NCBI GenBank assembly: GCA_009885805.1
Contig: VFJZ01000005.1
Coordinates: forward strand, 74,999 to 138,998
Origin: Actinomycetota bacterium
Lineage (GTDB): Bacteria; Actinomycetota; Thermoleophilia; Gaiellales; F1-60-MAGs149
Direction of reading: 5' to 3'
Length of the DNA: 64,000 bases
The position numbers were made by a program, and so were the translations under genes. Shown here one piece after another: positions 21,066 to 54,466 of the stretch. Within the stretch, counting starts at the first letter, position 1, and every line of letters begins with the position of its first letter. The notes beneath the pieces are model-generated. The model saw only the letters and a program-made list of their open reading frames with translations, did no database searches and was not told the DNA's origin.

Positions 21066-23119
21066 GGCGCGCGGGCGCCGACATCGGCGGCACGTTCACC
21101 GATCTGATCCTCGTCGACGACGACACCGGCTCGTTCCGGGTCGCGAAGGCGCTGACGACGCCCGACGACCCGTCGCGCGCCGTCGAGGAGGTACTCACGA
21201 GCGCCGCCGCCGCCGCGGGCGTGTCCGTGTCCGCGATCGACCAGGTGATCCACGGCACGACGCTCGTCACCAACGCGATCATCGAACGCAAGGGCGCGAT
21301 GACCGTGCTCCTCGCGACGGCCGGCTTCCGCGACGCGATCGAGATCGGCCGCGAGGCGCGGTTCGAGCTGTACGACATCGACCTCGAGCTGCCCGAGCCG
21401 CTCGTGCCGCGCTACCTGCGCTTCGACGTGCCCGAGCGGACGCTCTCGGACGGAACAACGCTGCGCGAGTTGGACGTCGCGTACGTGGAACGACTCGCCG
21501 CGGAGCTCGCCGAGGCCGGCGTCGAGGCGGTCGCGATCGCCTTCCTGCACAGCTATCTGAACCCCGCGGCCGAGCGCGCAGCCCGGGAGGCGATCGCCCG
21601 CGTCGCGCCGGCGCTGCGCGTCTCGATCTCCTCGGAGGTGGTCGCGGAGCTGCGCGAGTACGAGCGAACGTCGACAACGATTGCCAACGTGTACGTTCAG
21701 GGTCGCACAGAGGAATACCTCCGCGGGCTGCAGGCCCGTCTCGCCCGGCTCGGCTTCACCGGCGCCTTCCGCCTGATGCTGTCGGCGGGAGGGATCGCGA
21801 CGCCGGAGACGGCGATGCGCTTCCCGGTGCGCCTGCTCGAGTCCGGCCCCGCCGCCGGCGCCCTCGCCGCCGCCCATCACGGCACGGCGGCCGGGATCGA
21901 CGACCTGCTCAGCTTCGACATGGGCGGCACGACCGCGAAGTTCGCCGTCATCGTCGACGGCGCGCCGCTCACCGCCGGCGAGTTCGAGGTCGACCGCCGT
22001 TACCGCTTCAAGCGGGGTTCCGGCCTGCCCGTCAAGGTCGAGGTGATCGAGATGATCGAGATCGGCTCCGGCGGCGGTTCGATCGCGCGGATCGACTCGC
22101 TCGGATTGCTCCGGGTCGGGCCCGACTCGGCGGGCGCCGCACCCGGCCCGGTCGCCTACGGCCTCGGCGGCAGCGAGCCGACGGTGACCGACGCCGACCT
22201 CGTCCTGGGCTACCTCGACCCGGACTGGTTTCTCGGCGGCCGGATGGCGCTCGATCTCGCCGCGGCGCGCGAGGCGATCCGCACGCGCATCGCGGAGCCC
22301 CTCGGTCTCTCCACCGAGGCTGCGGCCTGGGGCATCCACCAGGCGGTGAACGAGTCGATGGCGAACGCGGCCCGCGTCCACGTGCTGGAACGCGGGCGTG
22401 ATCCGCGCGGCCTGCCGGTGCTCGTCTTCGGCGGGGCCGGCCCGGTCCACGGGCACCGTGTCGCGAAGGCGCTCGGCGCGCCGGCGATGATCGCGCCGCT
22501 CGGCGCGGGCGTGCTGTCCACCGTCGGCTTCCTGGTCGCGCCGCTGGCGTTCGACTTCGTCCGCTCCTGGCCGGCCGCGCTCGCGGGGCTCGACTGGACG
22601 CGGGCGCGCGCCCTGCTCGCGGAGATGGAGGCCGAGGGCGCGGCCGTGCTCGCGACGTCCGGCGTCCCCGCGGCGGAGACCACGCACGTCCGCGAGGCGG
22701 ACATGCGCTACGCCGGGCAGGGACACGAGATCCGCGTGCCGTGGCCGGCCGGGGACGATCCGGCGGCGGTGCGGGAGGCGTTCGAGACCGAGTACCGGCG
22801 ATTGTACGGACGGCTCGGCCCGGACGGCGTCGCGCTCGAGATCGTCTCCTGGCGTGTGCGGTCGAGCGGGCCACGACCGTCGGTCAACCTCGTCGTCGTC
22901 GGCGAGGCGGGCGAGGCGCGCAAGGGCACCCGTGACGCCTGGCATCCGGAGCGCGGCGGGATGGCGCCGACGCCGGTCTTCGACCGCTACCGGCTCGCGC
23001 GCGGTGCGACGCTCGAGGGGCCGGCGATCGTCGAGGAGCGCGAGTCGACGGTCGTGGTCGGCCCGGACACCTCCGCCCGGGTCGACGAACGTTGGAACCT
23101 GATCGTCACGCCGCGCTGA
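21062..23119 (+). CDS. hyuA: Hydantoinase A / oxoprolinase family (HyuA, N-methylhydantoinase A-like)
   Basis: The GTG at 21062 overlaps the SDR stop (GTGA). Sequence: 'GADIGGTFTDLILVDDDTGSFRVAKALTTPDDPS...LLSFDMGGTTAKF...'. 685 aa. Confidence 0.9.
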   Translation: MRRAGADIGGTFTDLILVDDDTGSFRVAKALTTPDDPSRAVEEVLTSAAAAAGVSVSAIDQVIHGTTLVTNAIIERKGAMTVLLATAGFRDAIEIGREARFELYDIDLELPEPLVPRYLRFDVPERTLSDGTTLRELDVAYVERLAAELAEAGVEAVAIAFLHSYLNPAAERAAREAIARVAPALRVSISSEVVAELREYERTSTTIANVYVQGRTEEYLRGLQARLARLGFTGAFRLMLSAGGIATPETAMRFPVRLLESGPAAGALAAAHHGTAAGIDDLLSFDMGGTTAKFAVIVDGAPLTAGEFEVDRRYRFKRGSGLPVKVEVIEMIEIGSGGGSIARIDSLGLLRVGPDSAGAAPGPVAYGLGGSEPTVTDADLVLGYLDPDWFLGGRMALDLAAAREAIRTRIAEPLGLSTEAAAWGIHQAVNESMANAARVHVLERGRDPRGLPVLVFGGAGPVHGHRVAKALGAPAMIAPLGAGVLSTVGFLVAPLAFDFVRSWPAALAGLDWTRARALLAEMEAEGAAVLATSGVPAAETTHVREADMRYAGQGHEIRVPWPAGDDPAAVREAFETEYRRLYGRLGPDGVALEIVSWRVRSSGPRPSVNLVVVGEAGEARKGTRDAWHPERGGMAPTPVFDRYRLARGATLEGPAIVEERESTVVVGPDTSARVDERWNLIVTPR
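22991..23090 (+). repeat. Direct repeat copy 1 (the functional 3' end of hyuA)
   Basis: My ungapped hand alignment to 23931..24030 (offset exactly 940 bp) gives 85/100 identical bases. Confidence 0.85.
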
Positions 23120-23434
23120 GCAGTTCGACCGCGCGGCGGATGCCGAGCGCGGCGGCGATCCTCACAACCCGCAGGGGCGCCCGCCTTGGAGCCTGAGCCT
23201 CGAGCGTCCCGGGTCATCCATGGCGCCCTTCCGGTGGTATCGTCCCGAACGGCTTCGTGGAAACGCTCGACGAACATCCGAGCGCGTCGGGTGGCACTGT
23301 CATTGCTGCGACTGCGGGTGGCCATCGATGACGCCGCGTCGGATGTGCAGCGCGATCAAGTCGCGGCGCTCCTACGACGAGGCCGCTCCGCTGATCCTCG
23401 AGCGTGTCGCCGACCGCGCGGCTCAAGGAGTGGC

Positions 23435-23674
23435 GTGAGCCCGACCGTCTTCCGTGAAGGCCCGTTCCGGTTCTTCTTCTTCTTGCGTGAGGAGTCGCGA
23501 CTGCACATTCACGTTTCCTCGGCAGACGGCGAGGCCAAGTTCTGGCTCGAGCCCACGATCGAGGTTGCGCGCAGTCACGGGCTCACCGCCCTCGACCTGC
23601 GACGCGCGACGGAAGCAATCGAACGACACGAGGAGAAGATCCGGGATGCCTGGACCAGTCACTTCGGCACCTGA
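23435..23674 (+). CDS. DUF4160 domain protein (putative toxin-antitoxin-like pair member)
   Basis: The GTG at 23435 gives 79 aa: 'VSPTVFREGPFRFFFFLREESRLHIHVSSADGEAKFWLEPTIEVARSHGLTALDLRRATEAIERHEEKIRDAW'. The 'HIHV...AKFWL' core is typical of DUF4160. Confidence 0.8.
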   Translation: MSPTVFREGPFRFFFFLREESRLHIHVSSADGEAKFWLEPTIEVARSHGLTALDLRRATEAIERHEEKIRDAWTSHFGT

Positions 23675-24362
23675 GGTAACTAACATCTCGCTGCATGGCT
23701 TCTGGCTGTTCATCGACGAACGTGAACTCTTCCTGCCCTTCGATAACTTCCCGTGGTTCAGGCGCGCCGCAATCGACGCGATCCTGCGCGTTGAGCGGCC
23801 GCATCCCGACCACCTCCGTTGGCCGGATCTCGATGTTGACCTGACAATCGATTCTCTCGAGCACCCCGGGGACTACCCCCTTGTGGCGAAAATCTGAGAC
23901 GAGAAGTCCCGCACGAGTCATCCAAAGCCTCGGCTCGCGCCCGGCGCGACGGTCGGGGGCTCGGCGATCGTGGAGGAACGCGAGTCGACAGTCGCGGTCG
24001 GCCCTGACACCTCGGCGCTGGTCGACGAGCACGAGCGGGCAGTCGAGGTCCTCAGCGAGGGCGACATAGGCCGCGGCGTAGGCGGTCAGGTTGTTGCGGA
24101 GCGCCCAGACGCGCGAGGCGCGCGGCGTCACTGGAAAGCGGCGAATGCGAGCGCGCCGAAGATCCTCGATCGCGAATTCGGCGCGCGACCGGTCGAGTTG
24201 CCCACCGCGGACCTGCTCGCGAAGCAGATTCAGTACCTCGTAGTCGATGAGGTCGGGAGCGGTGATCGATCTGGCGCGCCGAACGCGCACCCACACGCCG
24301 TCGCCGTAGGGCCCGTCGTCGGCGAGCACGGGGCCGAGCACCGAGGCGTCGATGACGATCAC
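23583..24362 (-). CDS. vapC: PIN-domain VapC toxin; native C-terminus apparently replaced, so the ORF reads through antisense DNA
   Basis: The GTG at 24362 overlaps the vapB stop (GTGA). Sequence 'VIVIDASVLG...DLIDYEVLNLL...LTAYAAAYVALAEDLDCPLVLVD' carries the PIN acidic residues. From about residue 111 the ORF is antisense to hyuA repeat copy 2 and then to DUF2442, ending only at 23583 (259 aa against about 130 expected). Confidence 0.7.
   Translation of the reverse strand: MIVIDASVLGPVLADDGPYGDGVWVRVRRARSITAPDLIDYEVLNLLREQVRGGQLDRSRAEFAIEDLRRARIRRFPVTPRASRVWALRNNLTAYAAAYVALAEDLDCPLVLVDQRRGVRADRDCRLAFLHDRRAPDRRAGREPRLWMTRAGLLVSDFRHKGVVPGVLERIDCQVNIEIRPTEVVGMRPLNAQDRVDCGAPEPREVIEGQEEFTFVDEQPEAMQRDVSYLRCRSDWSRHPGSSPRVVRLLPSRVAGRGR
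23646..23897 (+). CDS. DUF2442 domain protein (partner of DUF4160)
   Basis: 83 aa from the ATG at 23646, overlapping the upstream gene by 29 nt: 'VTNISLHGFWLFIDERELFLPFDNFPWFRRAAIDAILRVERPHPDHLRWPDLDVDLTIDSLEHP', the typical DUF2442 pattern. Confidence 0.75.
   Translation: MPGPVTSAPEVTNISLHGFWLFIDERELFLPFDNFPWFRRAAIDAILRVERPHPDHLRWPDLDVDLTIDSLEHPGDYPLVAKI
23931..24030 (+). repeat. Direct repeat copy 2 (displaced, diverged remnant of the hyuA 3' end)
   Basis: It translates in the hyuA frame as 'RLAPGATVGGSAIVEERESTVAVGPDTSALVDE', against 'RLARGATLEGPAIVEERESTVVVGPDTSARVDE' in hyuA. Homology stops at 24030, 29 nt short of the equivalent of the hyuA stop. Confidence 0.85.
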
Positions 24363-24595
24363 CGGGACGGATCGTCGCGGTCGGCGCGAATGAGACGCAC
24401 CGCGTCCTCGCCGGAGAGCGATCCGCCGCGCCTCGTCTCGATACGCGCGAGCCACTCCGCGACCGTCGGCTGCGTCGCCCGCTCCTCGAGGTGGAGGCGG
24501 AGCAGTTCCTGAAGGCTCTGCCCGTTGGCCGCCGCGCGCACCCGGAGCCGGCGCGCGGCATCCTCGGAGACGTTTCGTACCTGGAGTGTCGCCAT
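24359..24595 (-). CDS. vapB: VapB antitoxin (ribbon-helix-helix, Arc/FitA-like)
   Basis: 78 aa from the ATG at 24595: 'MATLQVRNVSEDAARRLRVRAAANGQSLQELLRLHLEERA'. Confidence 0.8.
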   Translation of the reverse strand: MATLQVRNVSEDAARRLRVRAAANGQSLQELLRLHLEERATQPTVAEWLARIETRRGGSLSGEDAVRLIRADRDDPSR

Positions 24596-24632
24596 GCATG
24601 CAATCGAGCGCTGTTCGCGCGTCTTTGCAACC

Positions 24633-26411
24633 ATGGCATCATCCCGCCCGATGGACGTCCTGCGCCTCGAGATGCTCTGGAACCGGCTGCTGTCCGTCGT
24701 CGACGAGCAGCAGGTGACGCTGATGCGAACGGCGTTCTCGACGGTCGTGCGCGAGTCGCAGGACCTCGCCTGCGGCGTCTTCGACCGGCGCGGGAACATG
24801 ATGGCCCAGTCGATGACCGGCACGCCCGGCCACATCAACACGATGGCGACCGGCATGCGCCACTTCCTCGCGGCGCACCCGCCGGACACGCTCGACGAGG
24901 GCGACGTCCTGATCACCAACGACCCCTGGCAGACCGCCGGACAGATCAACGACATGACGGTCGTCACACCGGTCTTCCACCGCGGCCGCGTGGTCGCCTT
25001 CTTCGCCTCGTGCTGCCACTCGCCGGACGTCGGCGGGCGCGTCTACGGCGGCGCCGCGAACGAGATCTACGAGGAGGGCATCCGGATCCCGATCATGCAC
25101 CTCGTTCGGCGCGGCGAGCCGAACGCGACGCTGGTCGCGATGATCCGCGCGAACGTCCGCGTGCCGGCGGAGACGATCGGCGACCTGTGGGCGCAGATGG
25201 CCTGCAACGACGTCGGCGGGCGCGACCTCGTGCGCTTCCTGGAGGAGTTCGACCTCACCGACTGCGAGGAGCTGTCCGACGAGATCCTGCGCCGCACCGA
25301 GGCTGCGCTGCGCGCCGCGATCCGGGCGTTGCCCGACGGCACGTACCGCAACGAGGCCTGGTCGGACGGGTTCGGCGGCGAGCCGGTGCACATCGTCGTC
25401 GCCGTCACGATCGACGGCGACGCCGTGCAGATCGACTACGCCGGCTCGTCGCCGCAGAGCCCGTCCGGCATCAATGTCGTCCTCAACTACACGCAGGCGT
25501 ACTCGTCGTTCGCGATCAAGGCGGCTCTGAACCCGGAGGTGCCCCACAACGAGGGCGCGTTCCGGCCGGTGACGACGACGGCGCCAGCGGGGTCGATCCT
25601 CAACTGCCTCGAACCGGCCGCGGTCGCCGCCCGGCACCTCGTCGGGCACCTGTTGCCATGCACCATCTTCGGTGCGCTCGCGAAGGCGATGCCGGGGCGG
25701 CTGATGGCCGGTGGCGCCGAGGCGAGCTGGCTGACCGTGTGGCGCGGCACCTGGCCCGGCCGCGACGACCTGTTCACGTTCACGCTCTTCCAGTCGGGCG
25801 GTGCCGGCGCCCGGGCAGCGAAGGACGGCCTGCAGACGAACGGCTTCCCGAGCGGTGTCGCCGGCGTCCCGGCCGAGGTGTACGAGACGCGGACGCCGCT
25901 CGTGATGCACCGCAAGGAACTGCTGATGGATTCGGGCGGGGCGGGGCGCTGGCGCGGCGGCCTCGCGATGCAGACCGAGTCGAGCTACCGCGGCGATGGA
26001 CACTGGGGCGTGTCGACCCTGGTCGAACGGACGCGGTTCGCCGGCCAGGGGATCGACGGCGGCCGGCCGGGCGCGCTCGGGGAGTACGTGCTCGGCGACG
26101 GTGAGCATCCGCCCGCCAAGACGATGGTTCGGTTGGCTAATGACGCGCACGTGCATCTGCGACTACCCGGCGGCGCCGGCTACGGCGACCCGCAGCTTCG
26201 CCCGCCAGCCGACGTCCTGCGCGACGTCGTGCACGGCTACGTGTCGCTCGACGCTGCTGCCGCCGAGTACGGTGTCGTGATCAGGTACGGCGGCGGCGAT
26301 CGCCTCGTTCGGCTACCGCACCACTACGCCGTCGACGAGACGGCGACCGCCCTGTTGCGGAACGAGACTCACGGGACCCGCACATCGACGCCCGTCGCCG
26401 ACGCGACGTAG
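24633..26411 (+). CDS. hyuB: Hydantoinase B / oxoprolinase family (HyuB, N-methylhydantoinase B-like)
   Basis: 'MASSRPMDVLRLEMLWNRLLSVVDEQQVTLMRTAFSTVVRESQDLACGVFD...ITNDPWQTAGQINDMTVVTPVF...GGAGYGDP'. The start is the ATG at 24633 or at 24651. Confidence 0.9.
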   Translation: MASSRPMDVLRLEMLWNRLLSVVDEQQVTLMRTAFSTVVRESQDLACGVFDRRGNMMAQSMTGTPGHINTMATGMRHFLAAHPPDTLDEGDVLITNDPWQTAGQINDMTVVTPVFHRGRVVAFFASCCHSPDVGGRVYGGAANEIYEEGIRIPIMHLVRRGEPNATLVAMIRANVRVPAETIGDLWAQMACNDVGGRDLVRFLEEFDLTDCEELSDEILRRTEAALRAAIRALPDGTYRNEAWSDGFGGEPVHIVVAVTIDGDAVQIDYAGSSPQSPSGINVVLNYTQAYSSFAIKAALNPEVPHNEGAFRPVTTTAPAGSILNCLEPAAVAARHLVGHLLPCTIFGALAKAMPGRLMAGGAEASWLTVWRGTWPGRDDLFTFTLFQSGGAGARAAKDGLQTNGFPSGVAGVPAEVYETRTPLVMHRKELLMDSGGAGRWRGGLAMQTESSYRGDGHWGVSTLVERTRFAGQGIDGGRPGALGEYVLGDGEHPPAKTMVRLANDAHVHLRLPGGAGYGDPQLRPPADVLRDVVHGYVSLDAAAAEYGVVIRYGGGDRLVRLPHHYAVDETATALLRNETHGTRTSTPVADAT

Positions 26412-27040
26412 GCGACGGCGGCCATGCCGACGAACAGGCCGTGACCGGCGACGCCCGGGATCGCCGAGATCGCGGTCGCCAGGGCGTCGGGATCCTCGAT
26501 CGGGTCGAAGCGGCAGTCGAGGATGACGTTCCCCTCATCCGTCGTGAACCCGTCCCGCCGGGTCGAGTCACCGCCCAACGCTGCGAGCAGGCGAGCGCAG
26601 ACCGGTTCGGCGAAGCGGATCACCTCGACGGGTAGCGGCGCTCGCTCTCCGAGCCGGCCAACGCACTTCGACTCATCGACGACGACGACGAACCGGTCCG
26701 CCGCGACCGCCACAACCTTCTCCCGCAGCAGCGCGCCACCGAGTCCCTTCGTCAGGGCGAGGCCCGGCCCGATCTCGTCCGCGCCGTCGAGGCAGACGGC
26801 GAGGCGCGGGCGCTCGGCGAGGGTCGCGAGCGGGATGCCGTGCGTGCGCGCGAGCACCGCCGTCGCCTCGGAGGTCGGGACGCCGACGACATCGCGGAGC
26901 CGGCCGTCGCGCAGGCGCTCGCCGATCGCGATCACGACGAACGCCGCCGTCGACCCCGAACCGAGGCCCACCGTCATGCCGCTCCGCACCTCGGCAGCCA
27001 CGGCCGCCTCGGCGGCACTGCGCTTCGCCGCTCCACTCAT
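26369..27040 (-). CDS. rpiA: Ribose-5-phosphate isomerase A
   Basis: 223 aa from the ATG at 27040: 'GMTVGLGSGSTAAFVV...DGADEI...LTKGLGGALLREKVVA...'. It is convergent with hyuB and overlaps its 3' end by 43 nt. Confidence 0.85.
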   Translation of the reverse strand: MSGAAKRSAAEAAVAAEVRSGMTVGLGSGSTAAFVVIAIGERLRDGRLRDVVGVPTSEATAVLARTHGIPLATLAERPRLAVCLDGADEIGPGLALTKGLGGALLREKVVAVAADRFVVVVDESKCVGRLGERAPLPVEVIRFAEPVCARLLAALGGDSTRRDGFTTDEGNVILDCRFDPIEDPDALATAISAIPGVAGHGLFVGMAAVAYVASATGVDVRVP

Positions 27041-28068
27041 GGCCGGTAGCCGGCTGCGAAGTGACGCGCCGTTCGCGGCGTCGGACCGGCGCCGATGCGC
27101 GCGAAGCGGAGCGCCGCCTCCTCCGCCCCGGCCGGAACCTGGCCGAACCGAGCACGAACGAGGTCGAGGACGATCTCGAGGTACCACTGCTCGCCGCGCA
27201 CGTCGAAGCGGACGCGACGGCCGAACCGGTTCGCCAGCGCCACCTTCTCACCGCGCGCCTCCTCCGGATCGATCTCGTCGGCCCGCTCGGTGTGGGTCTG
27301 GTGCGTCATGTTGAGACGGTTCGAGGTGGCCCACACCAGCACGTTGCGCGGCCGACCGACGACGCCGCCTTCGAGCGCCGCCCGCAGCGCCCGATCGGCC
27401 CGACCGGCGTCGTCGAAGACGAGGTCGTCGAGATACAGCAGACACCAGGGCGCATCGCCGTCGACGGCCGTGAACACGGCGTCGAGATGTTCCAGTTCGT
27501 CGTGCGCGACCTGGATCAGGCGCAGGCCACGGTCGGCGTACGCCGACGCGCACGCCCGCACGGTCGCGGACTTCCCCGTTCCCGGCGGCCCGTACAGCAG
27601 GGCATCATTCGCCGGCTCGCCACGCGTGAAGGCATCGAGATCGGCGAGCAGGTCGGCGCGCAACTCTGGCCGGCCGACGAGATCGTCGAGCGTGATCGGA
27701 TCGGGCTTCTCGACGCCGTGCAGGCCCCGCGCGTCCGCGACCAGCACGCGGTGGACGGCGAGCGGCCCGAGCCCCTCCCGCCGGTACCAGTCCGCGAGCG
27801 CAACCGCGTCGACAGCAAGGCCGGGGACGGCGGCGGCGAGCCGGCCGAGCTCGGCGTCGGCCCGGTCGAGGCGCCCGCGATCGGCGAGGCCGGCCCGTGC
27901 GGCTCGTGCGAACGGTCCGGACGACGCCCGCAGCCGCTGCGACACGGCGCCCGCCAGGTCTCCAGGCGCCGCGAACAGCTCCCGCTCGACGCCGACCGCG
28001 TCGCCGGCGAGGACTGCGGCGACCAGCGGCTCGTCGGCGAGATCGGCGAACGCGACGAGCTCGATCAC
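27037..28068 (-). CDS. DUF815 family AAA-type ATP-binding protein
   Basis: The GTG at 28068 overlaps the agmatinase stop (GTGA). Sequence: 'LDDLVGRPELRADLLADLDAFTRGEPANDALLYGPPGTGKSATVRA...LLYLDDLVFD'. The stop overlaps the rpiA ATG (ATGA). Confidence 0.8.
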   Translation of the reverse strand: MIELVAFADLADEPLVAAVLAGDAVGVERELFAAPGDLAGAVSQRLRASSGPFARAARAGLADRGRLDRADAELGRLAAAVPGLAVDAVALADWYRREGLGPLAVHRVLVADARGLHGVEKPDPITLDDLVGRPELRADLLADLDAFTRGEPANDALLYGPPGTGKSATVRACASAYADRGLRLIQVAHDELEHLDAVFTAVDGDAPWCLLYLDDLVFDDAGRADRALRAALEGGVVGRPRNVLVWATSNRLNMTHQTHTERADEIDPEEARGEKVALANRFGRRVRFDVRGEQWYLEIVLDLVRARFGQVPAGAEEAALRFARIGAGPTPRTARHFAAGYRP

Positions 28069-29048
28069 GATCGCTCGGGCCGCGCCGGACGACCGCTGCG
28101 CCGCAGCGCCAGGCCGGACAGCGTCTCGTAGACGACGCGGTGGCCGGCCATCGCCGTGATGTTGGCGTGGTCGTACGGTGGCGAGACCTCGACCAGATCC
28201 ATCGCGCAAAGGTCGACCTCCGAGGCGATCGCGCGCGCCGCAAAGAGCAGCTCGCGCGTCATCAGACCGCCGGGCTCGGCCGTCCCCGTCCCGGGCGCGA
28301 ACGCCGGGTCGAGGACGTCGATGTCGATCGTCAGATAGGTGCGCGGTGCCCGCGCCCGGGCGAACTCGATCGCCTCGCGCACGACGGCGCCGATGCCAAG
28401 TTCGACGACCTCGCTCATCGTCCGCCAGCGGAAGCCCTGCTCACGCATCCAGTCGAACTCGTGCGGATAGGGCCAGTTCCCGCGCAGGCCGATCTGCATG
28501 ATGTTCGAGCCGAGCAGGAATCCCTCCTTGACGCCGGTCGAGAAGGGAATCGCGTGCGGCGTCGTGTCGTCGAGACCGGTGTCGGCGTGCGTATCGAAAT
28601 GGATGACGGAGTAGCCGTCAGCGCCATGACGGTCGGCGATCGCCTGCATCACGGGGGTCGACAGCGAGTGGTCGCCGCCGAGGACGATTGCGACGGCGTC
28701 GGCAGCCAGCACCTCGGACACCCGTGCGCGGAGCGCCGCGTGCGACTGCTGAAGGAACGCCGGCGCGACGTCGACGTCGCCGGCGTCGACCACGCGCAGC
28801 GCCGTGAACGGGTCGATGCCGAGCTCCATGTTCGGCCGGCCGGCGGGCGCCCCGACGTCCTCGGCCTGGCGGATCGCGCGCGGGCCGAAGCGCGTGCCCG
28901 GGCGGAAGGACACGCCCTCGTCGAACGGCGCTCCGACGATGACGACGTCGGCGTCGGCGAACTCGGCCGGATCGATCGCGAACGGCACGCGGCCGTACGT
29001 CAGGCCAACGCCTGCGTACCCTGCCTCGTAGGGGCGGTTCGGCTGCAT
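28065..29048 (-). CDS. Agmatinase / guanidino-acid hydrolase (ureohydrolase family)
   Basis: 327 aa with the Mn-binding motifs 'GGDHSLS', 'HFDTHADT' and 'DIDVLDPAFAPGTGTAEPGG'. Confidence 0.9.
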   Translation of the reverse strand: MQPNRPYEAGYAGVGLTYGRVPFAIDPAEFADADVVIVGAPFDEGVSFRPGTRFGPRAIRQAEDVGAPAGRPNMELGIDPFTALRVVDAGDVDVAPAFLQQSHAALRARVSEVLAADAVAIVLGGDHSLSTPVMQAIADRHGADGYSVIHFDTHADTGLDDTTPHAIPFSTGVKEGFLLGSNIMQIGLRGNWPYPHEFDWMREQGFRWRTMSEVVELGIGAVVREAIEFARARAPRTYLTIDIDVLDPAFAPGTGTAEPGGLMTRELLFAARAIASEVDLCAMDLVEVSPPYDHANITAMAGHRVVYETLSGLALRRSGRPARPERS

Positions 29049-29058
29049 GGCGCGGATG

Positions 29059-29520
29059 CTACAGGCGCCGTACGTACAGGGTGGCCGGGTTGTCCGGTCC
29101 CCAGATCGCCAGCTCCTGCAGCGGCTCGAACCCGCAGGCGACGTAGAAGGCGCGCGTCGCGTCGTAGGGGGCGTAGTCCGCCGTGACCGACAGGGTCTTC
29201 ACCGTCAGCCACCGCTCGGCCGGGCTCGACGCGACCAGGGCCTCGATCAGCGCCCTCCCGACGCCCCGTCCGCGCTCTTCGGCCGCCACCGCCAGCCAGG
29301 TGATCTCGACCGACCCGGGATGGTGCCGCTTCCACGTGAGGAACCCGATCACGACGCCCTCATCGACGTAGATCAGGCCGCACTGGGCGCGGACGGCCTC
29401 GGCGCACTCGCGGATGCCCTCGTCGTTGGCGAACCAGAGCGGCAGCGTCAGCACGATCGCATCGCACCGACCCGCATCGTCCGGGGCCAGCGGCCGGATC
29501 ACTCCTCCGAGATCTGCCAA
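29059..29520 (-). CDS. GNAT family acetyltransferase
   Basis: 153 aa: 'LAVAAEERGRGVGRALIEALV...RAFYVACGFEP' (acetyl-CoA-binding motif A). Confidence 0.8.
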   Translation of the reverse strand: MADLGGVIRPLAPDDAGRCDAIVLTLPLWFANDEGIRECAEAVRAQCGLIYVDEGVVIGFLTWKRHHPGSVEITWLAVAAEERGRGVGRALIEALVASSPAERWLTVKTLSVTADYAPYDATRAFYVACGFEPLQELAIWGPDNPATLYVRRL

Positions 29521-29942: not shown

Positions 29943-29994
29943 CGTGATGATCGTAGCGGCAGGGGACGGGCCGCCACCGGAGAACCAGGTTGGC

Positions 29995-31402: not shown

Positions 31403-31473
31403 CCATCGCGCTCCTCTGCACGGCCGGGCTGATCGCGGGCGTGTCGGGCGCCTGGTCACCCTGAGGACTGTCG
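31396..31473 (+). other. In-frame upstream extension of the next CDS: 22 hydrophobic codons, TGA (31462..31464), then 3 codons before the ATG
   Basis: The ATG at 31396 overlaps the MauA-like stop (ATGCTGA). It reads MLTIALLCTAGLIAGVSGAWSP-TGA-GLS-MMETIG... in the same frame as ORF 31474..32745 (78 nt = 26 codons). Confidence 0.8.
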
Positions 31474-33242: not shown

Positions 33243-33255
33243 ACTTCCGGGTGAG

Positions 33256-45096: not shown

Positions 45097-45227
45097 CCGC
45101 GCTCCTCGGGACGGCCATACGCCGTCGCGCCCTCCGCAGGGCAGGCATATGGCGCTTCGATTGCGCTCGCGACGAGCTTCCGATCCGGAAACCCATCAGC
45201 GCCGGTGGGACCGGCACAGACCGAACC

Positions 45228-45971: not shown

Positions 45972-45993
45972 GGTTGGGTGCTAGCCTCTCGCC

Positions 45994-47061: not shown

Positions 47062-47071
47062 CGCCGACGGG

Positions 47072-49615
47072 CTACTCGTACTGGAGGGCCTGGAGCACGT
47101 CCAGCCGCGCCGCGCGGCGCGCGGGGAGGATCGCCGCCAGCACGCCGCAGACGACGGCGGCGAGCAGGTAGATGACGATCTGCGCGACGGGTAGGACGAA
47201 CCCGAGCCCGTCGACCGCGCGCGTCGCGAGGAAGCCGAAGACCATCCCGACGGCGACGCCGATGACCGCGCCGATGACCGCTGTGATGACGCTCTCGTAG
47301 CGCACGATCCAGCGCAGCTGCCGTCGCGTCGCGCCAACTGCGCGGAGCAGACCGATCTCACGCGTCCGCTCGTAGATCGACAGGACAAGGGTGTTCACGA
47401 GGCCGAGCAGTGAGATCACCACGCTGAAAGCGAGTAGCGCGTAGAGCAGTGCCAGGAACTGGTCGAGCTGGCGCTCGAAGCGCTGGAGGGCTGCGCGGTT
47501 CGACTCCGCCCGGACCTGCGGGAACGCAGTCTCGAGCGCGTCCACCACCGCCTGATCCGTCGCCTTGCGATCGACGCCCTCGCCAAACCGGACGAACGCG
47601 ATCCCGATCTCCGGCTTCTCGCCGAGTGAGTCGTACGCGTCCCGCGAGACGATGAACGTCTTGAAGATGGTCGGGGCGGAGTAGACACCACGAACGGTGA
47701 ACGTCGCCGAACGTCCCGATTCGGTGGCGACGGCAAACGTCGAGCCGACCGTCAGCGATCGCCCCTTCGCCCACTCCCTCTCGACGAGCGCGCCGTCGGC
47801 GCCCAGTTGCGTCACGAGGCTGTCGTCGCCGTTGACCCAGTCCATGCGATACGACTTCGTCAGCTCCGGCCCGGTCGCGGCGAGGGTGTCGTCGCGGCCG
47901 TCGATTCGCACCGCGAGCGTCTCGACCGCCACGACGGCGGACACACCCTCGACGCCCGCGACCGTCCCGATGACATCGGGCGGCATCACGTCGAACGACT
48001 TCGACTGGACGAGCATGTCCGACAGCAACGACGTCGAGAGCGTGCTGCGGAGCTGCTCCTTGAAGCCGGTCGTGAAGATCGCCGCCCACGTGATGAGCGC
48101 AACGGAGATCATCAGCGCCGCTGCCGTCACCGCCGTCCGGCCGGGGTTGCGGACGGTGTTCTCCGTCGCAATTCGCCCGGGCAGACCCGCCGCGCGAAGC
48201 GACCGACCGATGAGCCGCGCGAGTGGTGGGACGAGCCAGCGAGAACCCATTGCGACGCCGACCATCGTCAGCAGGACGCCAGCTCCCATCGCCGCGAGCG
48301 CCTGCCGGGGAGTACCGTCCGTGAAGAAGCCGATCGACGCCACGCCAAGGCCGAGCAGCACCATGACGGGTGCCAGCCAGGGCACGAACCGACCGCCGCG
48401 GGCCGGTGGCGGCGCGGTGCCCTCGCGGACGGCGGCGATCGGCGGGACGCGAGTCGCACGCAGGCCGGGTGCGAGGGCGGCGGCCAGCGTCACACCGACG
48501 CCGACAAGGAGGCAGATCGCGACGGTCCGCGGCGCGATCGCGAGATCGGCGCCCGGCAGACCGAACCCGAGGGCATCGAAGGCGACCAGGAGTAGGCTCG
48601 CAAAGCCGAGGCCGGCGACGATGCCGACCACCGTCGCGACGAGCGATACGACGATCGCCTCCCCGAGAACGCTCGCGAGGATCTGTCGGCGCGTCGCGCC
48701 GAGCGTCCGCAGCATCGCAAGCTCGCGGACGCGGTGGCCAATCGTCATCGAGAAGGCGTTGAAGATGATGAAGGCCGAGACGAAGATCGCGACGCCCGCG
48801 AAGGCGAGGAGGGCGGGACGGAGGAAGCCGTTGATCGAGTCGGAGATGCGCCTGGCCTCGGCGACGGCACGCTCACGGCCGGTCTCGACCGTGAGGTCGG
48901 CGGGCAGGGCCGCGGTGAGCCGTCGCCGCAACTCCTCGACCGAGACACCCTCGTCCGCGGCGACGTCGATCTCGTGGACCAGCCCCCGGCTGCGGAACCA
49001 CCGCTGCACGTCGTTGATGTCGGCCAGCACGACGGTCGCCCCGCCGAAGTCAACAGCTGACGTGAAGATGCCGACGATCGTCACCGGCTGTGCCCGCTGG
49101 TCGGTCGCCATCAAGGCGGTGTCGCCGACGCGGAGGTCACCGCGATCGGCGACCGACTTGAGGATCGCGACCTCACCCGGCGCCTCGACCTGCCTCCCCT
49201 CGATGTAGGTGCCGGTGTCGAACGGCGCGCCGGTCGAGTTGAAGACGAGCGGCGGCGCTCCGCCCGTCGGACCGAGGAACTTCGACTCGCCATCTCGCTC
49301 GATGACGAGGCCGCCGAAGCCCTGGATGAGTGGCTGCGCGACGGCGACACCGTCCACGGCAATGACGTCGATCAGCACCGACTGGTCGAACGGGACGATG
49401 TCAGCGTTGTCGTCCGTCGCGAACGCGGCTGCTTTCGTCACGACGATATCGGTCGTGGCGCGCGTCTCGACGAAGATGTTCTCGAACGCCGTCCCGATCT
49501 GGTCGGTCAGCGCGAAGGTGCCGGAGATCATCGCGACGCCGAGGACGATCGCGAGGGTTGTCAGGGTGCTGCGCAGCTTCCGCGCGAGCATTCCCCGCAG
49601 CGTCACGCGCCGCAC
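47072..49615 (-). CDS. ABC transporter permease, double FtsX domain (MacB-like), tandem copy A
   Basis: 847 aa from the GTG at 49615 (homologous to the start of copy B). By eye it is roughly three quarters identical to copy B along its whole length. Confidence 0.85.
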   Translation of the reverse strand: MRRVTLRGMLARKLRSTLTTLAIVLGVAMISGTFALTDQIGTAFENIFVETRATTDIVVTKAAAFATDDNADIVPFDQSVLIDVIAVDGVAVAQPLIQGFGGLVIERDGESKFLGPTGGAPPLVFNSTGAPFDTGTYIEGRQVEAPGEVAILKSVADRGDLRVGDTALMATDQRAQPVTIVGIFTSAVDFGGATVVLADINDVQRWFRSRGLVHEIDVAADEGVSVEELRRRLTAALPADLTVETGRERAVAEARRISDSINGFLRPALLAFAGVAIFVSAFIIFNAFSMTIGHRVRELAMLRTLGATRRQILASVLGEAIVVSLVATVVGIVAGLGFASLLLVAFDALGFGLPGADLAIAPRTVAICLLVGVGVTLAAALAPGLRATRVPPIAAVREGTAPPPARGGRFVPWLAPVMVLLGLGVASIGFFTDGTPRQALAAMGAGVLLTMVGVAMGSRWLVPPLARLIGRSLRAAGLPGRIATENTVRNPGRTAVTAAALMISVALITWAAIFTTGFKEQLRSTLSTSLLSDMLVQSKSFDVMPPDVIGTVAGVEGVSAVVAVETLAVRIDGRDDTLAATGPELTKSYRMDWVNGDDSLVTQLGADGALVEREWAKGRSLTVGSTFAVATESGRSATFTVRGVYSAPTIFKTFIVSRDAYDSLGEKPEIGIAFVRFGEGVDRKATDQAVVDALETAFPQVRAESNRAALQRFERQLDQFLALLYALLAFSVVISLLGLVNTLVLSIYERTREIGLLRAVGATRRQLRWIVRYESVITAVIGAVIGVAVGMVFGFLATRAVDGLGFVLPVAQIVIYLLAAVVCGVLAAILPARRAARLDVLQALQYE

Positions 49616-49617
49616 TG

Positions 49618-49653
49618 CTACTCGAGCCCCATGACGACGTCCCGGATCTGATC
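49618..49653 (-). other. Vestige of the ABC ATPase 3' end carried along by the tandem duplication
   Basis: The minus strand reads 'gat cag atc cgg gac gtc gtc atg ggg ctc gag tag' = DQIRDVVMGLE*. The real ATPase ends 'DQILDVVKGLE*' at 52247. Both are followed 2 nt later by the permease GTG. Confidence 0.7.
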
Positions 49654-49706
49654 GGCGATGGCGGCCGAAGGAGGCATGGAATGAGCTTACAGCGGCCCCG
49701 CCGCCG

Positions 49707-52244
49707 TCACTCGTACTGCAGGGCGTGGAGGACGTCGAGCCTGGCCGCCCGCCGAGCCGGGAGAATCGCAGCGAGCACTCCACAGACGACGGCCGCGACG
49801 AGGAACAGCACGACCTGCACCACCGGCACGACGAAGCCGAGTCCGTCGATCGCCCGGGTCGCGAGGAAGCCGAAGACCATCCCGACCGCGACGCCGATGA
49901 CGGCGCCGATGATCGAGGTGATGACGCTCTCGTAGCGGACGATCCGGCGCAGCTGGCGACGGGTCGTGCCGACGGCGCGAAGCAGGCCGATCTCGCGGGT
50001 TCGCTCGTAGATCGCCAGCACGAGCGTGTTGACGAGCCCGAACAGGGAGATCACGACGCTGAAGGCGAGCAGGGCATACAGCAGCGCGAGGAACTGGTTC
50101 AGCTGACCCTCGAAGCGATCGAGGGCAGCGCGGTTCGACTCGGCACGAACCTGCGGATAGGCGGCGTCAACGGCAGCGGTGACAGCCTTTTCCGTGCTCG
50201 CCGCATCGATGCCTCCGGCGAAGCGGACGAACGCGATGCCGATCTCGGGTTTCTCGGCGATCGCCGCGTACGCGTCCCGGGAGACGATGAACGACTGGAA
50301 GAAGGTTGCGTCGGAGAAGACGCCCTGCACGGTGAACGTCGCGGAGCGTCCGGCCTGCGTGTCGACGGCGAAGGTCGACCCGATCGCCAGGGAGCGGGTC
50401 TGGGCCCAGTCCTTCTCAACGAGGGCGCCGTCCACGCCGAGCCGCGCCACGAGGCTGTCGTCGCCGGTGACCCAGTCGATCTTGTACGCCTCCGTCAGCT
50501 CGGGCCCGGCGGCCGCGAGCGTGTCCTCGGTGCCGTCCACACGGACTGGCGTCGCCTCGATCGCCACAACGGTCGAGACCCCCTCGACAGCGGCCGCGAC
50601 GTCGACGACGCCGGGCGGCATCGCGCCGAACGACTTGGACTGGATCAGCATCTCGGAGGTGAACGAGGTGCCGAGCGCGCTGCGGATCTGCTGCTTGAAG
50701 CCAGTCGTGAAGATCGCTGCCCAGGTGATCAGGGCGACCGTGATCATGAGCGCAGCGGCCGTGACGGCGGTGCGACCGGGGTTCCGCACGGAGTTCTCGG
50801 TCGCGATCTGTCCCGGCAGGCCTCGCAGTGGGCGGCCGACGAGCCGCGCGATCGGTGGGACGAGCCATCGCGATCCCATCGCGACCCCGACCATCGTCAC
50901 CAGCACGCCGGCACCCATCGCGAACAGCACCTGCTGCGCGGTGCCGTCGCCGAAGAAGCCGATCGAGGTCACGCCGACGCCGATCAGCACGAGCAGCGGA
51001 GCCAGCCACGGGACCAGTCGTCCCGAACGTGCGACGGGAAGCGCGGCGCCCTCACGCACGGCCGCGATCGGCGGTACGCGCGTCGCGCGCAGCCCGGGCG
51101 CGAGCGCGGCCGCCAGCGTGACGCCGACACCGACCGCGAGGCAGATCGCGACCGTTCGGGGGGCCACCGTGAGATTCGAGCTGGGCAGGCCGAACCCAAC
51201 CGCATCGAACAGCGCCAGGAGCACCGAGGCGAAGCCGAGGCCGGCGACGATGCCGACGGCGGTCGCGAGGAGGGAGACCACGACCGCCTCCGCCATGACG
51301 CTGCCGAGCACCTGGCGGCGCGTCGCGCCCAGCGTCCGCAACATCGCGAATTCACGAACGCGCTGCCCGATCGTCATCGAGAAGGCGTTGAAGATGATGA
51401 AGGCCGACACGAAGACCGCGACGCCGGCGAAGGCCAGCAGCGCCGGGCGCAGGAAGCTGTTGATCGAGCCGGAGATGCTCGCTGCCTCGGCGAGACCGCG
51501 TTCACGCCCGGTCTCGACGGTGAGGTCGGCCGGCAGGGCGGCGGCGATGCGGGACTTCAACACCTCACCCGCGACGCCGTCCTTCGCGGCCACGACGATC
51601 TCGTGGGCCTTGCCCTCGCTGCGGAACCACCGCTGCACGTCGGTCGTCTCGCCGAGCACTACCGTCGCTCCGCCGAAGTCTGCCTTCGACGTGAAGACAC
51701 CAACGATCGTGACGGGTTCGGCACCCGTGTCCGTCGCCATCTGCGCCGCATCGCCGACGCCGACGTCGCCGCGGTCGGCGACCGCTTTCAGAATCGCGAC
51801 CTCACCGGGCGCAGCGACCGGGCGGCCCTCGATGTAGGTGCCCGTATCGAATGGCGGTCCGGCGGAGTTGAAGACGAGCGGCGGGGCGCCGCCGGTCGCG
51901 CCCAGAAACTCGGGCTTGCCGTCCTTGACGACGATCAGTCCGCCCAGGCCCTGGACGACGGGCTGCGCGACCTCGACACCCTCGACGGCCCGCACCTGCT
52001 CGATCAGCGACTCGTCGAAGGGCACGATGTCGCCCGTCTCGTCACTCGAGAACGTCGCCGCCTTCGTCACGACGACGTCGGTCGTCGCCCTCGTCTCGAT
52101 GAAGATGTCCTCGAAGGCCGACCCGATCTGGTCGGTCAGCGCGAACGTGCCGGAGATCATCGCGACGCCGAGGACGATCGCGAGGGCGGTCAGGGTGCTT
52201 CGCAGCTTGCGGGCAAGCATCCCGCGCAGGGTCACGTGCCGCAC
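49707..52244 (-). CDS. ABC transporter permease, double FtsX domain (MacB-like), tandem copy B
   Basis: 845 aa: 'MLARKLRSTLTALAIVLGVAMISGTF...' and 'LRAVGTTRRQLRRIVRYESV...'. It starts 2 nt after the ATPase stop. Confidence 0.9.
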   Translation of the reverse strand: MRHVTLRGMLARKLRSTLTALAIVLGVAMISGTFALTDQIGSAFEDIFIETRATTDVVVTKAATFSSDETGDIVPFDESLIEQVRAVEGVEVAQPVVQGLGGLIVVKDGKPEFLGATGGAPPLVFNSAGPPFDTGTYIEGRPVAAPGEVAILKAVADRGDVGVGDAAQMATDTGAEPVTIVGVFTSKADFGGATVVLGETTDVQRWFRSEGKAHEIVVAAKDGVAGEVLKSRIAAALPADLTVETGRERGLAEAASISGSINSFLRPALLAFAGVAVFVSAFIIFNAFSMTIGQRVREFAMLRTLGATRRQVLGSVMAEAVVVSLLATAVGIVAGLGFASVLLALFDAVGFGLPSSNLTVAPRTVAICLAVGVGVTLAAALAPGLRATRVPPIAAVREGAALPVARSGRLVPWLAPLLVLIGVGVTSIGFFGDGTAQQVLFAMGAGVLVTMVGVAMGSRWLVPPIARLVGRPLRGLPGQIATENSVRNPGRTAVTAAALMITVALITWAAIFTTGFKQQIRSALGTSFTSEMLIQSKSFGAMPPGVVDVAAAVEGVSTVVAIEATPVRVDGTEDTLAAAGPELTEAYKIDWVTGDDSLVARLGVDGALVEKDWAQTRSLAIGSTFAVDTQAGRSATFTVQGVFSDATFFQSFIVSRDAYAAIAEKPEIGIAFVRFAGGIDAASTEKAVTAAVDAAYPQVRAESNRAALDRFEGQLNQFLALLYALLAFSVVISLFGLVNTLVLAIYERTREIGLLRAVGTTRRQLRRIVRYESVITSIIGAVIGVAVGMVFGFLATRAIDGLGFVVPVVQVVLFLVAAVVCGVLAAILPARRAARLDVLHALQYE

Positions 52245-52246
52245 GA

Positions 52247-52998
<752 letters not shown>

Positions 52999-53069
52999 GC
53001 CCGCAGGGTACCGCCGGTCGACGGCACGGAACGTCGTCCGAGCGGCTGATCTGCCTCGTTCTTGCGGCT

Positions 53070-53164
53070 GATCAGCGGTACACGTACACCGTCTCGCCGA
53101 CGGGCGACTGGCGGTAGAGCCAGTCCGCCGCCCACATCGGGACGCGCGCGCAGCCGTGGCTGGC
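53070..53164 (-). repeat. Direct repeat copy 1: displaced remnant of the L,D-transpeptidase 3' end
   Basis: My ungapped alignment to 54372..54466 (offset 1302 bp) gives 86/95 identical bases. It still encodes '...HGCARVPMWAADWLYRQSPVGETVYVYR*'. Confidence 0.85.
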
Positions 53165-53208
53165 GATGCTGTTGTTGATGTGATACTCTTTACATGAACT
53201 ACTGAAAT

Positions 53209-53218
53209 GGGGGGGGGG
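53209..53218 (+). repeat. G10 homopolymer immediately upstream of the islet's first gene
   Basis: Counted directly: g at 53209-53218, followed by 'agcacaATG' (ATG at 53225). The tract ends in an SD-like GGAG. An upstream ATG at 53207 would read through it as MGGGST. Confidence 0.95.
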
Positions 53219-53224
53219 AGCACA

Positions 53225-53758
53225 ATGAAGATCCTTTCCAAGCGCAATGCCGTGGTCGTCGCGGTTGTCGTTGTCGGTTCCATCGCCGCGTTCGGGTCGG
53301 CACTCGCCTCGTCCGAGGACGAGGACGTCAAGGTCGATGCGTCGTGGGCGGTCGAGGCGGTGGCCACGCAGCGCGCAGCGGAAGAAAACCTGCCGCCGTC
53401 GCCGCCGGCCGCTGCGACGGCGGTGGGCGCGGAACTCGCGGCTCTCGAGGCGGCGAACGGGCACGCCGCGCCACCGCTTCTCCCGCCCACCGTTGACGAG
53501 AACGGCCTCGAGGTGAAAATCGGGAGCGCGCAGGAACCGCCGCGATTCGTTCCTGGCGGTGCGGTGCGTATCTACCCGGATACGCCCGAAGGTCTCAAGT
53601 ACGGCCTGACCGGAGCGCTTGAGGACCAGACGACGCTGCTCTGCAGGTATCCGAACGGCAACCTCGGGGGCATGGAGATCCTGCGGCGGGCAGGCGCGAC
53701 GGGTGACCCGTTCCCACCGCAGAACCCCAATGCCCGGAGTTGGGAGCGGCCATGCTGA
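53225..53758 (+). CDS. Secreted/membrane-anchored hypothetical protein (islet cargo)
   Basis: 'MKILSKRNAVVVAVVVVGSIAAFGSALASSEDED...' looks like a signal peptide or anchor. A Pro/Ala-rich linker follows, then a ~90-aa domain with no family I recognise. Confidence 0.65.
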   Translation: MKILSKRNAVVVAVVVVGSIAAFGSALASSEDEDVKVDASWAVEAVATQRAAEENLPPSPPAAATAVGAELAALEAANGHAAPPLLPPTVDENGLEVKIGSAQEPPRFVPGGAVRIYPDTPEGLKYGLTGALEDQTTLLCRYPNGNLGGMEILRRAGATGDPFPPQNPNARSWERPC

Positions 53759-54307
53759 GCTGCCGGCCTCGCCTCACGCTCTGCATGTTCGCACTGCTCG
53801 GACTATCACTATCGGCGCCTACGGCGTCGGCCATACACCCCGGGCCCGGTCACCTTGCAACCTTGGGGCTGGCTGTTCCGCGGGTCTACTTTGTCGACAC
53901 GACAGGCCCGAACTGGCCGGTCACGGCGGCGGCGCAGAAATGGAACGAATCGACTGCCGTCGGCGCCTATCGCGTGTCTGCCTGCCCGTCGACGTCCTAC
54001 TACTGCCTGCCCACCGTAGCCGTAAACCTGGGGACCTCTCCATGCGATGGCTCGATCGACGGCGTGTTCTTGTTCAACGTGTCGTCGGCGGGCCACTGGA
54101 TGCGTGACAGCCGGTTCAGACATCGTGTTCTGTAACGACACGCCGTCGGATCGCCGCCTGTCGACCGCGTGCCACGAGGAAGGCCACCCTCTCGGGCTAG
54201 GCCACAGAGGAAACGTCCTTGGCACCTGCATGAGGACTGGAACTATCTACCCGCAGTACCCGGACGCTCACGACTACGCACAGCTGGTGTCCGTCTACAA
54301 CCACTGA
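53752..54307 (+). pseudogene. Secreted metzincin-type zinc metalloprotease, split by one frameshift
   Basis: The ATG at 53752 (ATGCTGA overlap with the upstream stop) gives the signal peptide 'MLSCRPRLTLCMFALLGLSLSAPTASA', and this frame ends at 54135. A second frame (54047..54307) carries 'IVFCNDTPSDRRLSTACHEEGHPLGLGHRGNVLGTCM', that is HExxHxxGxxH plus a Met-turn-like 'CM'. The frame switch lies somewhere around 54070-54110. Confidence 0.7.
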
Positions 54308-54371
54308 TCGTCCCCGTCGGTGGCGCGAACTCCCCCGGTGGGGGTTCGCGCCATCGACTGGGCGCTGCCTG

Positions 54372-54466
54372 GATCAGCGGTAGACGTAGACGGTCTCGCC
54401 GACCGGGGACTGGCGGTACAGCCAGTCCGCCGCCCACATCGGAATCCGCGCGCAGCCGTGGCTGGC
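54372..54466 (-). repeat. Direct repeat copy 2: functional 3' end of the L,D-transpeptidase gene
   Basis: See 53070..53164. It encodes '...HGCARIPMWAADWLYRQSPVGETVYVYR*'. Confidence 0.85.

Follow-up and report, generated by a model that had tools for sequence, protein, structure and literature searches.

Two recombinase-less accessory islets with displaced host-gene ends in a Gaiellales genome, possible scars of homology-anchored acquisition

Foreign DNA that shares a homologous anchor with the chromosome can enter it without any element-encoded recombinase, either by a single crossover or by homology-facilitated illegitimate recombination (PMC3240628; de Vries and Wackernagel, 2002, and Prudhomme et al., 2002, both as cited in PMC5361080). 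In Escherichia coli conjugation assays for the latter process, a circular molecule had integrated by a single crossover in 56 of 60 events, and in 14 sequenced events 109–950 bp of the lacZ end had been duplicated (PMC3240628). Illegitimate recombination facilitated by homology has likewise been put forward as the source of displaced 3′ ends and of orphan or retained immunity genes in Rhs loci and in loci of the type VI secretion system (T6SS) (PMC5361080). A similar displacement is known from the prophage e14, which sits in icd: the intact gene extends into the element, and a C-terminal pseudogene, icdC, with conservative differences, is left on the far side (PMC13626634). Cis-mobilizable elements (CIMEs), in turn, have by definition lost the genes for integration and transfer and kept attL and attR (PMC5704250). 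Here we analyse 64,000 nucleotides (hereafter the window) of an uncultured high-GC actinobacterium of the Gaiellales (GenBank assembly GCA_009885805.1, contig VFJZ01000005.1, positions 74,999 to 138,998). In this DNA two islets of two small genes each stand behind the intact genes hyuA (islet 1) and ldt (islet 2), and each has a displaced copy of the host gene's end on its far side. We regard as evenly balanced between right and wrong the reading that each islet is the scar of a homology-anchored acquisition, in which a small accessory cassette came from a diverged relative with no recombinase of its own.

Both repeat pairs named in a preliminary description of this DNA, with offsets of 940 and 1,302 bp, were recovered by a repeat search of the window and by self-BLAST. 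The islet 1 pair (22991–23088 and 23931–24028) spans 98 nt at 86% identity (E = 1e-25), and the islet 2 pair (53070–53164 and 54372–54466) 95 nt at 90.5% identity (E = 1e-30). The common layout given in that description is indeed found twice: an intact host gene, a cargo of two overlapping genes with low GC content (63.5% in islet 1 and 65.6% in islet 2, against 71.5% for the window) and a displaced gene end in the same orientation as the host gene. Two of its details hold for one part only. A hyuA repeat of ~100 bp agrees with the 98 nt seen in the window, but the repeat is really ~182 bp long and includes the 3′ end of vapC, the window copy having been cut by a deletion. Likewise, the insert does lie just after the stop codon at ldt, where 2 nt separate the two, but at hyuA the cargo starts 40 bp past the stop in the window and 57 bp past it in L001, an assembly carrying the same islet. 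The description also turned on whether further direct repeats of gene 3′ ends exist. No other same-strand pair of this kind was found in the 64 kb, even at E = 0.1, the remaining self-matches being a 2.6-kb tandem pair of ABC (ATP-binding cassette) permease paralogues and weak paralogue matches. Nor did we find, outside the lineage, any pair of 90–190 bp with at least 85% identity in ~834 kb of other fetched loci, a sample biased in that all of these are hyuA neighbourhoods. The two structures themselves are not an assembly artefact, a possibility that we reject on the grounds that four independent assemblies reproduce them: islet 1 is also present in three Logan assemblies from different runs (L001–L003), and islet 2 in a diverged contig of the Joint Genome Institute (JGI) collection (L086).

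The host gene of islet 1, hyuA (hydantoinase/oxoprolinase A; 21062–23119, plus strand), is an intact open reading frame (ORF) of 685 amino acids which matches its relatives from end to end; its L001 orthologue carries the Pfam domains Hydant_A_N, Hydantoinase_A and Hydant_A_C. Repeat copy 1 (c1; 22991–23159, plus strand), which bears a 15-bp deletion relative to L001, joins the hyuA 3′ end to a non-functional fragment of the vapC 3′ end, whose minus-strand translation is a VapC-like C-terminus. The insert of 771 bp follows (23160–23930, plus strand) and consists of a 275-bp leader and two genes co-directional with hyuA, a DUF4160 gene (23435–23674) and a DUF2442 gene (23646–23897), with an overlap of 29 nt (PF13711, 1.5e-14; PF10387, 1.5e-13). 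Overlapping small genes of these two families fit the layout of a putative toxin-antitoxin-like module. Such pairs are annotated side by side on 21 plasmid records, one of them a 6.9-kb Yersinia ruckeri plasmid, which would be consistent with an addiction-type function; a scan of viral contigs with DUF2442 gave no match. Repeat copy 2 (c2; 23931–24028, plus strand) consists of the hyuA 3′ fragment that was displaced. A deletion of 83 bp between two 7-bp repeats (GACGAGC) has shortened it in the window, taking the end of the hyuA remnant together with the end of vapC. In L001 c2 is complete through its stop codon and runs on into an intact vapC end. In this undeleted haplotype, repeat 1 is 182 bp long and comprises the last 128 bp of hyuA plus ~57 bp past its stop, the latter being the 3′ end of the convergent vapC, which overlaps hyuA by 14 bp. 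Repeat 1 is a lineage-specific composite of a hyuA end and a vapC end, and each of its copies includes a part that restores nothing.

On the far side of islet 1 stands vapC (24029–24362, minus strand), a PIN-domain toxin gene. It is intact in L001, where it encodes 133 amino acids; in the window its last 23 codons are deleted, the PIN match is weak, and the gene is fused antisense to the hyuA remnant in an ORF that extends to 23583. It is followed by vapB (24359–24595, minus strand), which encodes a FitA-like ribbon-helix-helix antitoxin (PF22513, 7.6e-10), and by hyuB (24651–26411, plus strand). The vapBC genes of L001 (3742–4376) are likewise placed between hyuA and hyuB. In both genomes the vapB start is 56 bp from hyuB. 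Since hyuB directly adjoins hyuA in more than 50 other lineages, vapBC and then the DUF4160/DUF2442 pair represent successive insertions into a coupled gene pair. The hyuA/vapC junction, the target of islet 1, exists in this lineage only, and the relatives available for comparison with an empty islet 1 site are distant ones that have no vapBC.

Islet 2 interrupts the passage from ldt to an ABC transporter operon. The host gene ldt (54374–55567, minus strand) is intact and encodes an L,D-transpeptidase with YkuD and peptidoglycan-binding domains (PF03734, PF01471), 100% identical to the predicted protein P0121 of 397 amino acids. Its 3′ end forms repeat copy B (54372–54466, minus strand), as the repeat search and alignment showed. 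The insert of 1,207 bp (53165–54371, plus strand) holds, in its own reading direction, a leader, two genes and a hairpin, its cargo being convergent with ldt. The leader (53165–53224) is AT-rich and has a run of ten G in the ribosome-binding region of the first cargo gene, which encodes a secreted protein of 177 amino acids (53225–53758, plus strand). The second gene (53753–54307, plus strand) encodes a metzincin-like protease with the motif HExxHxxGxxH; the window copy is frameshifted at 54121, and the intact L086 protein of 184 amino acids gave sub-threshold matches only, to matrixin, reprolysin and snapalysin. A terminator-like stem (54312–54362) follows and is shared with the convergent ldt. 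Beyond the insert lies repeat copy A (53070–53164, minus strand), in which the final 92 bp of ldt, including the stop codon, are displaced. It is contiguous with native downstream DNA: a 72-bp spacer and then the ABC ATPase gene (52247–52998, minus strand), whose ABC_tran domain was found in L086 and in three further relatives, L087, L088 and L089. A consensus scan for a promoter in or near the ldt remnant gave no useful result. Compared with L086, the window has single-base frameshifts in the ATPase gene (at 52615, a run of four versus five G) and in the protease gene (a 1-bp insertion at 54121), each of which is either a real pseudogene mutation or an assembly error.

The secreted protein and its protease partner of ~185 amino acids form a conserved two-gene module that occurs in varied contexts, with 273 family representatives at E ≤ 1e-3. 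In contig L090 the pair (98–1221; 51% identity) lies ~510 bp upstream of a borderline tRNA(CAU) match, and in L091 (64–1025) it adjoins an ECF (extracytoplasmic function) sigma factor gene and a MacB/FtsX ABC operon. In four contigs (L093–L096), relatives with 41% identity come directly after a DUF6262 gene and a partial ORF with a likeness, in our view, to the C-terminal end of Tn554-type tyrosine recombinases. In one described element (PMC10868621), two tyrosine recombinases occur together with a DUF6262 protein.

The two copies of each repeat differ in the manner of alleles. Those of islet 2 have nine differences, eight of which fall at third codon positions, so that a single amino acid is changed (I to V), and the remnant has kept its reading frame and stop codon. 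Had the remnant evolved neutrally, such a third-position bias would be expected with P of about 0.01 by a rough estimate. In islet 1, the functionless vapC fragment of c1 reads ADARIAAAPGIRCPVEVLSAA up to its stop and the functional vapC end reads ADARLAAAPGISCAVELFSAA up to its own; the hyuA fragment of c2 keeps its frame and stop in L001. These coding-like differences indicate that a diverged homologous locus was the source of one copy in each pair, and that this copy is not a decayed local duplicate. To judge from them, the incoming DNA brought its own version of the gene end.

Comparison with relatives places islet 2 far back. L086, whose Ldt is 90% identical, has the same islet with the same junctions and both repeat copies. 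Three other contigs with the same gene order (L087, L088 and L089; Ldt 66–74% identical) show ldt, then 235–370 bp, then the ABC ATPase gene, with neither cargo nor repeat. The islet is consequently a single derived insertion that predates the split between the window and L086. The ldt end that served as target is conserved across hosts, and even between lineages with 66% identical Ldt just 8–12 nt of the last 93 bp of the gene differ. Because the divergence is saturated at a small number of synonymous sites and the remnant lies under a recent recombination block, dating of the duplication was abandoned. The window and L086 compare as a mosaic of blocks whose identity ranges from 50 to 100%. 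The block of 95–100% (52435–53280) runs from the 5′ part of the ATPase gene through the spacer, the remnant and the leader to the signal peptide, its end being within the first cargo gene; in L086 the leader is nearly identical, with a G run of the same length. We saw no alternative, unrelated cassette at the islet 2 site, which occurs filled or empty, the rest of the cargo being represented by alleles that are 50–77% identical between the window and L086. For islet 1 the comparison is closer, the L001 contig being 97–99% identical to the window and 99–100% outside short diverged patches. As far as these mosaics tell, the lineage evidently recombines often with diverged relatives, and both islets can be read as decaying, given the 83-bp deletion in vapC, the 15-bp deletion in c1 and the protease frameshift.

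Close relatives are scarce. Neither the GTDB representative genomes nor the JGI metagenomes yielded one with more than 69% HyuA identity, and a search for vapC homologues reached 57% identity at best, the best VapC relatives belonging to Acidimicrobiales. Exact look-ups of the islet 2 partner protein, VapB and P0121 returned no match, and L086 and the window itself were all that a word-index search with the protease returned. No second locus with either cassette came to light.

The reading that we place at an even chance accounts for this anatomy as follows. The incoming DNA would have held the cassette beside its own allele of the host gene's end and would have paired with the resident gene through that carried homology. 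It could then have been integrated as a circularised fragment by a single, Campbell-type crossover, or by one homologous crossover with the other joint made illegitimately inside the anchor. Either route would give an intact gene, the cassette and a displaced, partial copy of the gene end. The events that survived would be those which left both neighbours working, namely hyuA with the overlapping vapC for islet 1 and, for islet 2, ldt together with the leader of the ABC operon, which begins 72 bp past the old ldt stop. Ordinary homologous recombination in the flanks would afterwards have spread and reshuffled the islets, which would now be decaying. A filter of survivorship acting upon homology-guided insertion would then explain why the gene 3′ ends appear to be targeted and preserved. 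In agreement with a homology-anchored insertion, the presumed anchors are duplicated, with repeats of 182 bp (islet 1) and 95 bp (islet 2) that abut the insert edges exactly, the copies of both islets differ as alleles rather than neutrally, and for islet 2 the empty site is preserved in the three relatives named above. That parts of repeat 1 restore nothing is to be expected if they were copied, as a homology arm, from the corresponding locus of a related genome. What the analysis shows is the anatomy, the allelic character of the copies, the empty sites at ldt, the age of islet 2, the mosaic recombination and the lack of element machinery; what we infer is the route of recombination and the part played by selection.

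Several observations weigh against it. We did not find a donor-like arrangement, with either cassette beside hyuA or ldt and no displaced copy, in collections from which close relatives are almost absent. RecA is poorly served by homology of 86–91% over 95–185 bp, but the sequences may have been more alike when the events took place. Allelic copies would be predicted equally by a site-specific element of the e14 kind, and in other lineages relatives of the protease pair adjoin a DUF6262 gene and a likely recombinase C-terminus. Finally, the 64 kb contain two cases and the ~834 kb of other loci none of comparable identity, which hints at something specific to the lineage.

Among described processes, single-crossover and homology-facilitated illegitimate recombination (PMC3240628) come closest to a homology-anchored acquisition: foreign DNA enters by a homologous anchor with no recombinase of its own, and the crossover of a circular molecule duplicates a gene end on either side of the insert, with a similar layout and in a similar size range (109–950 bp). 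The laboratory anchors were identical or nearly so, whereas those considered here differ by 9–14%, the events are ancient and the route is reconstructed. Rhs, contact-dependent growth inhibition (CDI) and T6SS effector-immunity loci (PMC5361080) offer a second parallel, in which an incoming module with a homologous upstream anchor pushes the resident 3′ end downstream. Their retention of a protective gene also has its likeness in the resident vapBC, kept beside the new DUF4160/DUF2442 pair. In contrast to those loci, the displaced ends studied here are C-termini of ordinary enzymes instead of variable toxin domains, and each locus has undergone one displacement, with no array. The minimal mobile elements of Neisseria (Saunders and Snyder, 2002, as cited in PMC1797815) are, in that source's account, similar in being cassettes of one to three genes between conserved genes which have no recombinase and move by homologous recombination in their flanks. 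On the same account they differ in being recognised by alternative cassettes at one site and in needing no flanking repeat, whereas islet 2 shows filled and empty states and both islets a repeat scar.

The alternative that survives best, though we think it rather unlikely, is that the islets are decayed elements of the e14/icd type. A tyrosine-recombinase element would have entered the 3′ end of a gene, attP would have supplied the new gene end, and later loss of the integrase would have left a CIME-like remnant of attL, two genes and attR. As in icd, an element-side 3′ end completes the intact gene and a conservatively altered 3′ fragment is displaced to the far side, and as in CIMEs there is no integrase and both repeats persist. 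At the upstream repeat edge the copies of islet 2 agree fully over their first 20 nt as read in the direction of ldt, a possible crossover core, and those of islet 1 over 10 nt in the window; in L001 the copies share no identical stretch at this left edge, which counts against the reading, and copy 1 was replaced later on. The neighbourhood of the protease-pair relatives in L093–L096 and L090, with a DUF6262 gene and partial ORF in the former and the borderline tRNA match in the latter, is also in its favour, as is the presence of DUF4160/DUF2442 pairs on plasmids. Against it, neither an integrase nor a fragment of one nor a parent element was seen at either site in the four islet-bearing assemblies. 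Searches with Pfam and NCBIfam, covering the ORFs of both islets and six-frame translated pieces of the islet 1 leader, found no recombinase or transposase domain, nor did Pfam detect in the leader any coding remnant such as an integrase fragment. L001 and L086 have the same two-gene content in their respective islets. Moreover, e14 is 15 kb long and encodes its own integrase, and a CIME is defined by kinship to a functional parent at the same site, of which none was found in collections nearly devoid of close relatives. The site of islet 1 is no conserved gene end; as a lineage-specific junction of hyuA and a toxin gene it offers no conserved attB. In islet 2, by its conservation across hosts, the ldt end would qualify as such a target. 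Unlike attP arms, the repeat of islet 1 includes homologous stretches of 111 bp and 57 bp that do not restore anything. Two elements of different specificity would be needed, both shrunk to two genes.

Repeat copy 1 of islet 1 has a further history. The c1 region (window 22981–23159, L001 2662–2853) shows ~15% divergence and a 15-bp indel and is the strongest diverged patch between these genomes, which are otherwise 99–100% identical over 6 kb. The patch coincides almost exactly with the repeat copy; between the window and L001 there is no difference in copy 2 or in the cargo. Three alleles of the 182-bp unit have star-like relations, with interspersed differences, and both copy-1 alleles encode plausible HyuA C-termini. 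Together with the confinement of the patch to copy 1, this indicates at least one replacement of the 182-bp unit as a module after the islet had formed. Such a replacement is possible as a conversion tract from an islet-less donor which stopped at the border of homology. Cycles of integration and excision involving cassettes with other repeat alleles would also be possible; excision of e14, for comparison, yields a chimeric icd (PMC13626634). A tentative extension, which we consider improbable, would make the islets recombinase-less cassettes for which the carried gene end serves as homology arm. They would cycle into and out of the chromosome through host recombination, by Campbell-type integration and loop-out, and would be handed on among related strains. 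The footprint of such cycling would be the modular replacement of the 182-bp unit between near-identical genomes.

An origin in situ appears quite improbable. Here a tandem duplication of 95–185 bp, or a long staggered break followed by end joining, would have captured unrelated DNA, and the two copies would have diverged in place. End joining by Ku and LigD is common in Actinobacteria, a duplication neatly preserves both neighbours, and the insert is flanked exactly by the repeats, as this origin would have it. Yet divergence of 9–14% requires a long neutral decay, and almost no first- or second-position changes or frame breaks are seen; the pattern of divergence in the functionless copies resembles that of constrained coding sequence, in the third positions of islet 2 as in the VapC-like C-terminus of islet 1. 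For islet 2, gene conversion from the intact ldt copy could have masked decay of the remnant.

The preliminary description had suggested an active or recently active dedicated mechanism that targets the 3′ ends of protein-coding genes and preserves them. The evidence does not support this. In the form of a novel class of mini-elements that lack a recombinase and are mobilised in trans by an enzyme whose gene lies elsewhere, it seems to us very improbable. It could draw on the two cases in 64 kb set against none of comparable identity in ~834 kb elsewhere, and on the replacement of c1 as a unit between near-identical genomes. The evidence on the other side is broader. Islet 2 is an ancient single event and both islets are probably decaying; the repeats are unlike in length and in the position of the stop codon; and neither cassette was met at a second locus. 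The two repeats are unrelated, and so are the cargos, DUF4160/DUF2442 in one case and a secreted protein with a metzincin-like protease in the other, which are also oppositely oriented with respect to their host genes; this speaks against one dedicated mechanism. As for the targeting, the lineage-specific junction that underlies repeat 1 would be a poor target for a site-specific element, and preservation of the gene end, taken in that description as a sign of targeting, is expected from survivorship and from DNA that brings its own copy of the end. Its negative observations were borne out. Domain searches, an inverted-repeat check and a tRNA scan revealed no recombinase in the islets, no terminal inverted repeats in either islet and no tRNA in the 64-kb window. 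Comparison of the junctions likewise yielded no motif, hairpin or core common to both islets; one pair scored 15 against a shuffle maximum of 13, lies in GC-rich low-complexity sequence and was judged meaningless. The stretch at 26–47 kb, between the islets, holds housekeeping genes and no recombinase.

The same observations dispose of several element classes. An insertion sequence, a miniature inverted-repeat transposable element or a transposon is rejected for want of terminal inverted repeats and a transposase, and the repeats, 95–182 bp long and diverged, are no short identical target duplications. Integron cassettes are rejected on the lack of an attC-like hairpin, the stem at 54312–54362 being the only strong one, and of an integrase at 26–47 kb, and tRNA-targeted insertion on the lack of a tRNA in the window. 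A diversity-generating retroelement (DGR), with the gene end as variable repeat and the downstream copy as template repeat, fits superficially in having a 3′-end repeat with a similar copy within ~1 kb downstream and, in islet 1, an in-gene copy that varies between strains beside a constant downstream copy, but its probability is negligible, as no reverse transcriptase lies in or near the islets, the variation runs past the stop codon into non-coding DNA, and the substitution spectrum refutes it, with only 2 of 14 (islet 1) and 0 of 9 (islet 2) differences at adenines of the downstream copy.

Two further sets of similar sequences were noted in the window. Downstream of the ATPase gene that adjoins the ldt remnant, two FtsX/MacB-type ABC permease genes (47072–49606 and 49707–52235, minus strand) are tandem paralogues with ~78% nucleotide identity over 2.6 kb. 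Stretches at 11416–11977 and 12558–13119, ~75% identical and offset by ~1,140 bp, belong to neighbouring genes which are probably also tandem paralogues.

Taken as a whole, the structure works like the product of a single crossover or of homology-facilitated illegitimate recombination and looks like an e14/icdC scar or a CIME. The islets add a new and well-documented case to a type of event already known, here from an uncultured lineage of high-GC actinobacteria. They provide two clean natural cases of small accessory cassettes that entered a chromosome without an element-encoded recombinase, in which the displaced gene end remains as a datable scar. They also illustrate that apparent targeting and preservation of gene 3′ ends can stem from homology-guided insertion combined with survivorship, and caution against taking repeats of this kind for the att sites of some new class of element. 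Should the islet 1 repeat unit truly be exchanged as a module, such scars could mark host-recombination-dependent cassette mobility and the turnover of toxin-antitoxin genes. Were such cycling common in the lineage, it would represent a distinct, host-dependent way of moving addiction modules and genes for secreted proteins.

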